Shown piece after piece: positions 21,001 to 24,000 of a DNA stretch of 64,000 nucleotides. The number at the start of each line of letters is the position of its first letter. Position 1 is the first letter of the stretch. The DNA comes from Escherichia coli. Its GTDB lineage: Bacteria > Pseudomonadota > Gammaproteobacteria > Enterobacterales > Enterobacteriaceae. The position numbers are program-made. The DNA lies in the NCBI RefSeq assembly GCF_030013205.1, contig NZ_CP122648.1; one strand, given 5' to 3'.

Positions 21001-24000
21001 CACTGCAACAACGTTGCCAGCAAATTGTCACCAGCCCAGTGCTTAGCCCGGAGCAGAAGCGCCATTTTCTGGCACTTGAAGCAGAAAACAATCTGCCTTA
21101 TCCGCAGCTGCCTGCCGAAGCCCGCCGTGCGCTGGATGAGGGTGTAATCTGCGATATGTTTGAAGGTCATGCGCCGTACAAACCGCGCTATGTCTTACCC
21201 GATTACGCCCGTTTTCTGGCGAACGGTTCCGAATGGCTGGAGCTGGAAGGCGCGAAAGATCTTGATGACGCACTCTCTCTGCTGACCATTCTTTACCACC
21301 ACGTACCGTCGGTCACATCGATGCCGGTCTACCTGGGGCAACTGGATGCGTTGTTGCAACCGTATGTTAGAATTCTAACACAAGACGAGATCGATATTCG
21401 AATAAAACGTTTCTGGCGTTACCTCGACAGAACCCTGCCAGACGCCTTTATGCACGCCAATATCGGCCCGTCTGATTCGCCCATTACCCGTGCAATCTTA
21501 CGTGCAGACGCAGAGTTGAAGCAGGTTTCACCGAACCTGACCTTTATCTACGATCCTGAAATCACCCCTGATGACCTACTGCTGGAAGTGGCGAAGAACA
21601 TCTGTGAATGTAGCAAACCGCACATCGCCAACGGTCCGGTGCATGATAAAATTTTCACAAAAGGGGGCTACGGGATTGTGAGCTGTTACAACTCACTGCC
21701 GCTGGCGGGTGGTGGCAGCACGCTGGTACGCCTTAACCTGAAAGCCATTGCCGAGCGCAGCGAATCGCTGGATGACTTCTTTACGCGCACTCTACCGCAC
21801 TACTGCCAGCAGCAGATCGCCATCATCGATGCGCGGTGTGAATTCCTCTATCAACAATCACACTTCTTTGAGAATAGCTTCCTGGTGAAAGAAGGGCTGA
21901 TTAACCCTGAACGTTTTGTGCCAATGTTTGGCATGTATGGGCTGGCGGAAGCGGTTAACTTGCTGTGTGAGAAAGAAGGGATTGCCGCGCGCTACGGTAA
22001 AGAAGCCGCCGCAAATGAAGTGGGTTATCGCATCAGCGCGCAACTGGCGGAGTTTGTCGCCAATACCCCCGTGAAATATGGCTGGCAAAAACGCGCCATG
22101 TTACACGCACAGTCGGGGATCAGTTCCGATATCGGCACCACGCCGGGCGCGCGTTTACCCTATGGCGATGAGCCAGATCCGATCCCCCATCTGCAAACTG
22201 TCGCCCCGCATCATGCTTATTATTATTCCGGCATCAGCGACATTCTGACGCTCGACGAAACCATCAAACGTAATCCGCAGGCGCTGGTACAGCTTTGCCT
22301 CGGTGCCTTTAAAGCCGGAATGCGTGAATTTACCGCCAATGTCAGCGGTAACGATCTGGTTCGCGTTACCGGTTATATGGTGCGTTTGTCGGATTTAGAA
22401 AAATATCGCGCCGAAGGTTCACGCACCAACACCACCTGGCTGGGCGAAGAAGCCGCACGCAACACTCGTATTCTGGAACGCCAGCCGCGCGTGATAAGCC
22501 ATGAACAGCAGATGCGCTTTAGTCAGTAAGATTATCCCCTTCTCCTGCGTTGACGGGCCAGGCAGTCGTCTGGCTCTGTTTTTGCAGGGCTGCAATCTGC
22601 GCTGCAAAAACTGTCACAATCCGTGGACGATGGGGCGCTGTAATCATTGCGGAGAGTGCGTGCCACAGTGTCCGCATCAGGCGTTGCAGATTGTTGACGG
22701 CAAAGTGGTGTGGAACGCTGCGGTCTGCGAGCAGTGTGATACCTGCCTGAAGAGGTGTCCGCAACATGCCACGCCGATGGCGCAATCCATGAGCGTGGAC
22801 GAAGTGCTTAGCCATGTCCGCAAAGCGGTGCTGTTTATTGAAGGGATAACGGTAAGCGGCGGCGAAGCCACGACCCAACTGCCGTTTGTAGTGGCGCTGT
22901 TTACTGCTATCAAAAACGATCCACAACTGCGCCATCTCACCTGTCTGGTGGACAGTAACGGCATGTTGAGCGAAACCGGCTGGGAAAAATTACTCCCGGT
23001 GTGTGACGGCGCAATGCTCGATCTCAAAGCATGGGGTAGCGAATGTCATCAACAATTAACCGGACGCGATAATCAGCAGATTAAGCGCAGCATCTGTTTG
23101 CTGGCAGAGCGCGGCAAGCTGGCGGAACTGCGTTTGCTGGTAATCCCTGGCCAGGTGGATTATTTGCAACACATCGAAGAACTGGCGGCGTTTATCAAGG
23201 GACTTGGCGATGTTCCGGTACGCCTGAACGCGTTTCATGCCCACGGCGTGTATGGCGAGGCGCAAAGCTGGGCGAGCGCCACGCCGGAAGACGTTGAGCC
23301 GTTGGCTGATGCATTAAAGGTGCGCGGGGTGGGCCGGTTGATATTTCCGGCGCTGTATTTGTGACATGCCGGATGCGGCCTACGGTTCGGCACAGACTTG
23401 TAGGCATGATAAGACGCGTCCAGCGTCGCATCAGGCATTGTGCGCCAACTGCCGGATGCGGCGTGAACGCCTTATCCGGCCTACGGTTCGGCACAAACCT
23501 GTAGGCCTGATAAGACGCGACAAGCGTCGCATCAGGCATTATGCGCCGACTGCCGGATGCGGCGTGAACGCCTTATCCGGCCTACGGTTCGGCACAGACT
23601 TGTAGGCATGATAAGACGCGACAAGCGTCGCATCAGGCATTGTGCGCCAACTGCCGGATGCGGCGTAAACGCCTTATCCGGCCTACGGTTCGGCACAGAT
23701 TTGTAGGCATGATAAGACGCGTCAAGCGTCGCATCAGGCATTGTGTGCCGACTGCCGGATGCGGCGTGAACGCCTTATCCGGCCTACGGTTCGGCACAAA
23801 CCTGTAGGCATGATAAGACGCGACAAGCGTCGCATCAGGCATTATGCGCCGACTGCCGGATGCTGCCTACGAAGGGTAAACTACCCACTAACGCTAAACA
23901 ACGCATACGTATTATTAAGCAACACTTCGGCAATCTCATCTTCTGGTTCCGGGCGCAACTCGCAAAGCACGTCAAACACCCGCACAGCCTGTTCCGGTCG

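Follow-up and report, generated by a model that had tools for sequence, protein, structure and literature searches.

The repetitive extragenic palindromes (REPs) of Escherichia coli are imperfect palindromes of 30–40 nt that carry the conserved motif GTAG, or CTAC on the opposite strand, at the foot of a hairpin (PMC3333891). They occur in bacterial interspersed mosaic elements (BIMEs), of which Ton-Hoang et al. (2012; PMC3333891) distinguish two classes. In BIME-1, the REPs of one Y-Z1 pair stand on either side of a long linker that contains a site for integration host factor (IHF). In BIME-2, Y and Z2 REPs point in opposite directions, are joined by short linkers and form tandem copies whose number varies between strains. 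The subject here is a REP array between the convergent genes yjjW and yjjV of Escherichia coli. It lies in a stretch of 64,000 nt from contig NZ_CP122648.1 (assembly GCF_030013205.1), called the window below, and all positions are those of the window.

The orthologous array of strain K-12 is listed in EcoCyc as REP352a-h and overlaps yjjV by 2 nt (Nielsen and Hansen, bioRxiv 10.1101/2024.07.17.603846). It is one of eight REP regions in which DNA was protected from exonuclease after sodium dodecyl sulfate (SDS) or copper stress (bioRxiv 10.1101/2024.07.17.603846). The K-12 locus also appears as a 387-bp BIME-2 in table DS3 of Sutormin et al. 2019 (PMC6379681). The coordinates of that table refer to strain W3110 and were used with an offset of +1120, which was checked on three neighbouring intervals. 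No repeat_region feature is annotated at the locus in MG1655 or in the other RefSeq records examined, and the name REP352 is taken from the paper. A sister array is REP325, which is likewise made of Y and Z2 repeats (Qian et al. 2015, PMC4550694).

The array in the window is very probably a BIME-2, namely a five-unit allele of REP352a-h, shaped by an exchange of units that we infer from its variants and most likely acting as a barrier in the 3' untranslated regions (3'-UTRs) of its neighbours.

Anatomy of the Array

Tandem Repeats Finder (TRF) reports a repeat with a period of 101 bp at 23376–23863 (4.8 copies, 93% matches, zero indels, score 871). A repeat search gives four in-register copies spaced 101 bp apart. 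Each repeat unit is composed of a Y REP of 34 nt on the plus strand, a linker of 16 nt, a Z2 REP of 37 nt on the minus strand and a linker of 14 nt. There are five 101-bp units, the first of which measures only 83 bp because its Y REP is truncated.

Read from the yjjW side, the elements are a truncated Y, then Z2-Y four times, then a Z2 and a second truncated Y. Their orientation alternates strictly (+,-,+,-). This makes nine intact REPs (four Y and five Z2), plus two truncated Y remnants of 16 nt each. An earlier note, made from the sequence alone, had described at least five alternating REP units of a known class filling positions 23365–23880 between yjjW and yjjV. Those limits are exactly the spacer from stop codon to stop codon, and both the alternation and the minimum hold, although the count was low. 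The comparison with REP consensus sequences that it had suggested returns four Y matches at 0–1 mismatch and, together with parsing, five Z2 copies. The known class is BIME-2, to judge by the anatomy, the Rfam matches given below and the K-12 catalogue entries.

The left truncated Y REP (GCCGGATGCGGCCTAC) occupies 23368–23383 on the plus strand. It stands in register with the full Y copies, from which it departs by an internal deletion of 18 nt between two CGGC repeats. The four full Y REPs have the plus-strand sequence GCCGGATGCGGCGTGAACGCCTTATCCGGCCTAC. No. 1 (23451–23484) is an exact match to the Y consensus, and no. 3 (23653–23686) has one mismatch, with the loop variant GTAAAC. Nos. 2 (23552–23585) and 4 (23754–23787) were placed by the consensus and by parsing.

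The five Z2 REPs, GTAG-tagged hairpins on the minus strand, were delimited by parsing at 23400–23436, 23501–23537, 23602–23638, 23703–23739 and 23804–23840. No. 1 has a single C.U mismatch in its lower stem. No. 2 is the sole copy in which the lower stem is fully paired.

Parsing also defines the linkers. The 16-nt tail-to-tail linker, GGTTCGGCACARAYYT, is found at 23384–23399 and again at 23485–23500, 23586–23601, 23687–23702 and 23788–23803. The 14-nt head-to-head linker, ATTRTGYGCCRACT, is found at 23437–23450 and again at 23538–23551, 23639–23652, 23740–23753 and 23841–23854. The right truncated Y REP (GCCGGATGCTGCCTAC; 23855–23870, plus strand), also placed by parsing, has the form of the left remnant with one substitution. 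It is followed by GAAGGGTAAA (23871–23880) and then by the stop codon of yjjV.

Each of the four Y matches in the array lies within 0–1 mismatch of the consensus. Across the whole window the Y consensus has six matches, while none is expected from 100 shuffles of the window. The Z2 consensus picks out two array copies, at two differences, and the element-by-element parsing gives all five. Both consensus sequences were checked independently against REP325 and the Rfam model.

Assignment to BIME-2

All nine intact copies are 34 or 37 nt long, end in CTAC, form hairpins, carry the GTAG tag and are imperfect, as REPs are defined to be. They are also dispersed, with a median of at least 27 matching places per E. 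coli genome, and the array is fully extragenic, lying between two stop codons. In composition it consists of Y and Z2 REPs that alternate strictly, separated by linkers of 16 and 14 nt and repeated in tandem, in numbers that vary between strains. The array fits all the sequence features by which Ton-Hoang et al. define BIME-2. In that class generally, linkers are matched to the motifs that Gilson and Bachellier named S and s/l/r; the linkers seen here are unlike those of REP325.

The Rfam family RF02564 (naRNA4) supports the assignment independently. Its model was built on the Y-linker-Z2 unit of REP325. Four matches on the minus strand of the array score 83.7, 78.9, 74.7 and 74.2 bits, and one unit on the plus strand scores 61.0 bits, compared with a gathering score of 59.5.

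Several other classes of repeat were considered. A BIME-1 was rejected, since the array contains no match to a Z1 REP and none to the IHF consensus WATCAANNNNTTR, its linkers are just 14–16 nt long and its copies stand in tandem. A clustered regularly interspaced short palindromic repeat (CRISPR) array was rejected because the repeats alternate in orientation and the apparent “spacers” are recurring linkers. A miniature inverted-repeat transposable element or a remnant of an insertion sequence was rejected on anatomy.

Two further REP elements occur in the window. A small BIME-2 of the form Y-Z2-Y lies at 56336–56480, between rsmC and three tRNA-Leu genes (56625–56944). Its Y REP is a variant (GTCGGATGCGGCG...CCGACCTAC) in which changes at either end of the stem compensate each other, and its linkers are different. 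It scores above the RF02564 threshold, at 70.3 bits, and the K-12 site has Z2-Y only. A third REP pair, at about 19871–19915, is seen only through its tail motifs at 19871 (plus strand) and 19899 (minus strand). It occupies the place of the BIME between deoC and deoA, which in K-12 comprises a short Z-type REP and an inverted Y-type REP, 15 nt apart.

Hairpin Folding

Folded as RNA, the Y hairpins have a free energy of -21.3 kcal/mol (z = -4.9 for Y no. 1). The same energy is obtained for Z2 no. 2 (z = -6.3). The other four Z2 copies (nos. 1, 3, 4 and 5) bear one stem mismatch each and fold at -14.7 kcal/mol. Overall, the z scores of the REP hairpins range from -4.4 to -6.3, and the spacer as a whole is far more stable than its shuffles on both strands, with z = -11.4 for each. 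The truncated copies fold weakly or not at all: the left one (23368–23383) makes a stem of only 4 bp at -6.5 kcal/mol, and the right one, at -0.6 kcal/mol, has no fold. A Y and a Z2 joined tail to tail form a single long hairpin of -49.2 kcal/mol, which resembles a REP doublet forming hairpin (REPIN).

The transposase TnpA-REP can bind a REP only if the stem is interrupted by an internal mismatch or bubble (PMC3333891). Such a bubble is present here as a 2x2 internal loop (GC/AA) in the folds of the GTAG strand and of the DNA. In the RNA fold of the opposite strand, a G.U pair reduces this loop to 1x1.

Copy-Number Variation and Origin

The number of units at this locus was compared in 59 E. 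coli records, taken at even steps down a ranking of 5,472 matches; the resulting counts mirror sequencing effort and not natural frequencies. The spans of the locus (1401, 1300, 1199, 1098, 997 and 915 bp) form discrete classes in 101-bp steps. Five units are present in 16 of the 59 records, four in 11, three in 5, two in 14, one in 10 and none in 3. Two records that seemed to be outliers in span are four-unit alleles on inspection. The zero-unit allele (L007) retains a lone Y REP within a spacer of 33 bp.

Within this sample, records with equal identity to the query nearly always have an equal locus span, so the alleles look stable within lineages. Three five-unit alleles (those of the window and of the records L009 and L010) carry their unit variants in differing orders, and some of the units are mosaic. 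Such differences point to recurrent unequal exchange or gene conversion and not to a single expansion. The array would grow and shrink by unequal exchange or replication slippage between units that are 92–99% identical. The transposase TnpA-REP, a REP-associated tyrosine transposase (RAYT), may contribute to these changes in copy number; the enzyme cleaves and recombines BIMEs in vitro (PMC3333891).

The array is also found outside E. coli. The orthologous locus of Escherichia sp. E1V33 has two units. That of Escherichia sp. MOD1-EC7003 (L017, 3258–4351) has 11 units, with 10.9 copies by TRF and about 22 REPs in about 1.1 kb. This array shows a higher-order period of 201 bp and is about twice as large as the largest E. 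coli allele sampled. Since cryptic Escherichia carry the array at the same locus, it predates the species E. coli.

The truncation of the left Y is shared with K-12, with 7 of 10 other E. coli alleles and with two cryptic Escherichia genomes. Elsewhere the left end holds a full Y (L006) or shows a further deletion (L008). For L012 and L013 the parsing covered unit 1.

A 20-mer across the junction of Y and linker was sought by exact match in 100,044 species-representative genomes and was found at four loci. Two are the yjjW-yjjV loci of cryptic-clade Escherichia. The other two, in metagenome-assembled genomes of Rhodocyclaceae, are chance matches in GC-rich unrelated sequence with neither REPs nor homology in the flanks. 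Because the E. coli representative is itself unmatched, the scan says little about the distribution of the unit.

Flanking Genes and the Right Junction

The spacer between the two stop codons is 516 bp long. On its left, yjjW (22501–23364, plus strand) encodes a glycyl-radical enzyme activase. The gene is supported by its open reading frame (ORF), by RefSeq and by a match to TIGR04041 (398 bits, cut-off 250). Its stop codon is the TGA at 23362–23364, and a yjjW transcript would lead into the array. On the right, yjjV (23881–24663, minus strand) encodes a TatD-family metal-dependent hydrolase, again supported by its ORF, by RefSeq and by a match to NF008522 (569 bits, cut-off 481). Its stop codon is a TAG on the minus strand at 23881–23883. 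The gene names come from NCBIfam and from the annotation of a RefSeq record with 100% identity. Bases 22900–24300 are 100% identical to E. coli K_EC180 (NZ_CP062203.1), and a match to them is present in 5,425 of 5,426 complete E. coli genomes.

The right end of the array meets yjjV in more than one way. In the K-12-type junction, which also occurs in both cryptic clades, the array closes with a full Y whose CTAC is the TAG stop of yjjV. The stop thus lies inside the REP tail, and YjjV ends in ...LFNVP* (L001, 7255–7261). In the window-type junction (23871–23883), the truncated Y is followed by GAAGGGTAAA and the stop, and the protein ends in ...LFSVSG*. The last 2–4 residues of YjjV and its stop codon therefore differ with the form of the junction. 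In strain IMT16316 the last Y is full and GAAGGGCAGA comes after it, a form that looks like an intermediate.

The motif GAAGGG beside the junction resembles the start of the tail-to-tail linker in the rsmC-side BIME. This likeness of sequence hints at a past recombination between BIMEs.

The two main junction types also differ in folding. The K-12-type Y hairpin over the yjjV stop has a free energy of -28 kcal/mol (for a stretch of 46 nt, flanking pairs included). In the window allele the Y copies next to the two stops are truncated ones that fold weakly, and the nearest strong hairpin starts about 40 nt from either stop. Work by Liang and Deutscher reportedly found that hairpins close to a stop codon stall terminating ribosomes. 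Given that the strength of the junction hairpin and the end of YjjV both differ, the two types could give different levels of YjjV and different read-through. A broader suggestion would be that the state of the array, meaning its copy number and whether the terminal Y REPs beside the two stop codons are intact or truncated, tunes the flanking genes like a heritable dial while leaving promoters and most coding sequence untouched. This idea is speculative and rather improbable.

Proposed Role of the Array

The terminator consensus scan finds no intrinsic-terminator-like site in the spacer, so that nothing but the REP hairpins is structured at the 3' ends of both transcription units. By analogy, the array would most likely act locally as a bidirectional hairpin barrier in the 3'-UTRs combined with a partial terminator. 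RNA polymerase that passes the end of yjjI-yjjW on the plus strand, or of yjjU-yjjV on the minus strand, would transcribe the array into a string of stable hairpins, each with a free energy of about -14 to -21 kcal/mol. Such structures would stop 3'-to-5' exonucleases and favour a partial, Rho-assisted termination. The array would also keep the convergent yjjW and yjjV transcripts from invading each other.

The model for this role is REP325, which acts as a partly Rho-dependent terminator or attenuator and stabilises the upstream mRNA (Harris et al. 2026, bioRxiv 10.64898/2026.03.23.713779). Genome-wide, the presence of REPs between two convergent genes is correlated with a higher expression of each (bioRxiv 10.64898/2026.03.23.713779). 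The supplement of Harris et al. 2026 has a differential-expression row for yjjW and does not cover the array itself.

A candidate promoter at 23869–23841 on the minus strand agrees with the consensus at 9 of 12 positions. It is weak, lies within chance expectation and was rejected.

Several points weigh against the 3'-UTR barrier or against parts of it. The RNA role of the array is one that we infer from the analogy with REP325. Four of the five Z2 copies bear the stem mismatch, at a cost of about 6.6 kcal/mol. Harris et al. report a large dependence on context and no general gain in half-life for mRNAs that end in REPs (bioRxiv 10.64898/2026.03.23.713779). The L007 allele, with its single Y and 33-bp spacer, is found in healthy strains, so the extra units are dispensable and may be selectively neutral. 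The suggested contribution of a RAYT is weakened by the program RAREFAN, whose predictions of RAYT-associated REPINs include seven of the eight REP regions but leave out REP352 (bioRxiv 10.1101/2024.07.17.603846).

Another reading is that the array is selectively neutral selfish or junk DNA. A REPIN-like doublet would have been seeded once at a single Y REP, without benefit to the host at this locus, and its copy number would then have drifted through slippage, unequal crossing-over or RAYT activity. Such a history is a serious possibility, if not the favoured one. It would account for a copy number that runs from 0 to 5 within E. coli and reaches 11 in a sister clade, with both flanking genes kept throughout. 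A span that is nearly always equal at equal identity fits a slow drift fixed by lineage rather than adaptive switching, and the tail-to-tail doublet indeed folds as one REPIN-like hairpin of the stability given above. Against it, every allele sampled has a REP hairpin here, as do the sister Escherichia clades, a persistence which suggests that one hairpin or more is being kept. The neutrality of extra copies is moreover compatible with a 3'-UTR barrier role for the array as a whole. The array might instead act mainly at the level of DNA, as a binding and cleavage site for gyrase and a topological insulator that absorbs positive supercoils between the convergent transcription units. The BIME-2 class is over-represented among gyrase cleavage sites, with Y REPs preferred, and the gyrase signal at BIME-2 elements rises when transcription is blocked (PMC6379681). 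BIME-2 elements are also reported to lie at the borders of supercoiling regions and to block the spread of supercoils (PMC10592627), and the convergent layout of yjjW and yjjV is one in which positive supercoils would gather. Gyrase cleaves only some BIME-2 elements, however, as the authors of that work state (PMC6379681). Topo-seq data from K-12 W3110 show zero cleavage sites in the 387-bp interval at this locus under each of the four treatments (ciprofloxacin, rifampicin plus ciprofloxacin, microcin B17 and oxolinic acid), with the caveat that ambiguous read mapping in a repeat array could conceal such sites. A role as gyrase site or supercoil barrier is unlikely, and it is a weaker possibility than the 3'-UTR barrier.

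It is far less probable still that the array yields nucleoid-associated RNAs (naRNAs) of the naRNA4 type, which would bind the protein HU and condense the chromosome by bridging cruciforms. Four units exceed the RF02564 gathering score on the strand that read-through from yjjV would transcribe. RF02564, however, in effect models the head-to-head unit of BIME-2, so a match shows the class of the sequence and not its function, and the head-to-head linker of this array is unlike that of REP325. Condensation dependent on HU and naRNA4, together with REP-REP contacts, has been reported (Qian et al. 2015, PMC4550694), and the exonuclease protection of REP352 DNA under SDS or copper stress (bioRxiv 10.1101/2024.07.17.603846) could be counted on the same side. 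A more recent preprint, from a group to which the senior author of the original study belongs, speaks against it. According to that preprint, deletion or overexpression of REP325 leaves the nucleoid volume unchanged, HU, cruciform DNA and naRNA4 do not assemble into a ternary complex that is stable, and Hi-C gives no long-range REP-REP contacts (bioRxiv 10.64898/2026.03.23.713779).

Open Reading Frames Across the Array

Fourteen ORFs of at least 30 amino acids overlap the spacer, on both strands. Two of those in the array, at 23532–23741 and 23633–23842 on the minus strand, are 69 amino acids long, and the others measure 33–114. A third ORF of 69 amino acids (23056–23265) lies within yjjW. That the array ORFs are genuine genes for small proteins is improbable in the extreme. 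They do begin with ATG and recur in register. The period of 101 bp, however, is not divisible by 3, so that the frame rotates from unit to unit, and the same palindromes carry ORFs on both strands. Changes in copy number between strains would also make and destroy such genes.

Searches of protein families and annotations lead to the same result. Four array ORFs have no Pfam match at E <= 1, one of the 69-amino-acid array ORFs has no match in NCBIfam, and in none of the RefSeq records examined does the NCBI pipeline annotate a coding sequence in the spacer. With no family match and no annotated gene, it is reasonable to call the array ORFs spurious, and they are artefacts of reading through palindromes. 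The earlier note had spoken of many spurious ORFs of 69 amino acids; it was right about their nature, but there are just two.

Other Features of the Window

Between prfC and yjjG lies a lambdoid prophage (about 28900–53300) that is defective, about 24.5 kb long and absent from K-12. Its ends are marked by a DinI-like gene (28947–29195) and a tyrosine integrase gene (52051–53274). Its cargo includes Lom, fragmented pseudogenes for tail fibre and tail tip, holins, a Q antiterminator, KilA-N, an XRE repressor pair and yfdPQR.

At the end of the prophage nearer to prfC, a gene for a SLATT-domain protein (29418–29969, plus strand) overlaps a reverse-transcriptase gene (29947–31317, plus strand), both named as in RefSeq. 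The two look like an anti-phage defence pair of the retron or Abi type, carried as a prophage moron. The prophage also contains a tRNA gene (40253–40328, minus strand; Rfam 65.6 bits; tRNA-Gly in RefSeq), with the lysis genes on one side and the late regulatory region on the other.

Implications

The array is a known kind of element at a locus that is already catalogued, and nothing at this locus would surprise a specialist. What is modestly new is descriptive only: how exactly the five-unit allele is built, the existence of two junction types with different C-termini of YjjV, and the range of 0–11 units.

Annotation hygiene. The spacer should be masked as REP/BIME-2 sequence, and the ORFs that run through it should be kept out of gene calls. 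Matches of the array to the naRNA4 family in Rfam are not evidence of functional small-RNA genes.

Strain typing. The locus is a clean copy-number polymorphism with a step of 101 bp. It could serve as a typing marker.

Natural series. The alleles could provide a graded set in which the number of REP hairpins between convergent genes is related to termination and mRNA stability.

Comparison with Known Systems

BIME-1 elements (RIB/RIP) resemble this array in being built from inverted REPs and in lying at the 3' ends of genes. They are single-copy elements with a Z1 REP and with an IHF site in the long L linker, whereas the array is a tandem one that lacks both Z1 and the IHF consensus.

REPINs mobilised by RAYTs are known from Pseudomonas and E. 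coli. The doublets of the array are like them in forming a long hairpin, in carrying the GTAG tag and in having the stem mismatch that TnpA-REP requires. REPINs, however, are usually described as dispersed doublets, while the copies described here stand in tandem at a single locus. The window contains no RAYT gene.

REP325 lies between yjdM and yjdN and is the source of naRNA1-6. Its elements follow the same order (Y, tail-to-tail linker, inverted Z2, head-to-head linker), its period is 100 bp compared with 101 bp, and its Y and Z2 sequences are near-identical to those of the array. The linkers are different. The tail-to-tail linker is GGAGGGTGCGGGAATTT in REP325 and GGTTCGGCACARAYYT here, and the head-to-head linker is AGTCGGCACCGTT in REP325 and ATTRTGYGCCRACT here, so that the latter can be aligned only in part to its naRNA4/REP325 counterpart. 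REP325 is also placed between co-directional genes of one operon, unlike the array between convergent genes. Its function has been tested by experiment, while the array in the window is known from its sequence.

The orthologous array is REP352 of K-12, which is present in MG1655 and W3110 as a four-unit version. The flanking genes, the 101-bp unit of Y and Z2 and the truncated Y beside yjjW are the same, and the aligned part is about 95% identical. REP352 has eight intact REPs in a spacer of 419 bp, compared with the five units, nine REPs and 516 bp of the window. Its right end is a full Y, whereas the array in the window ends in a truncated Y and GAAGGGTAAA.

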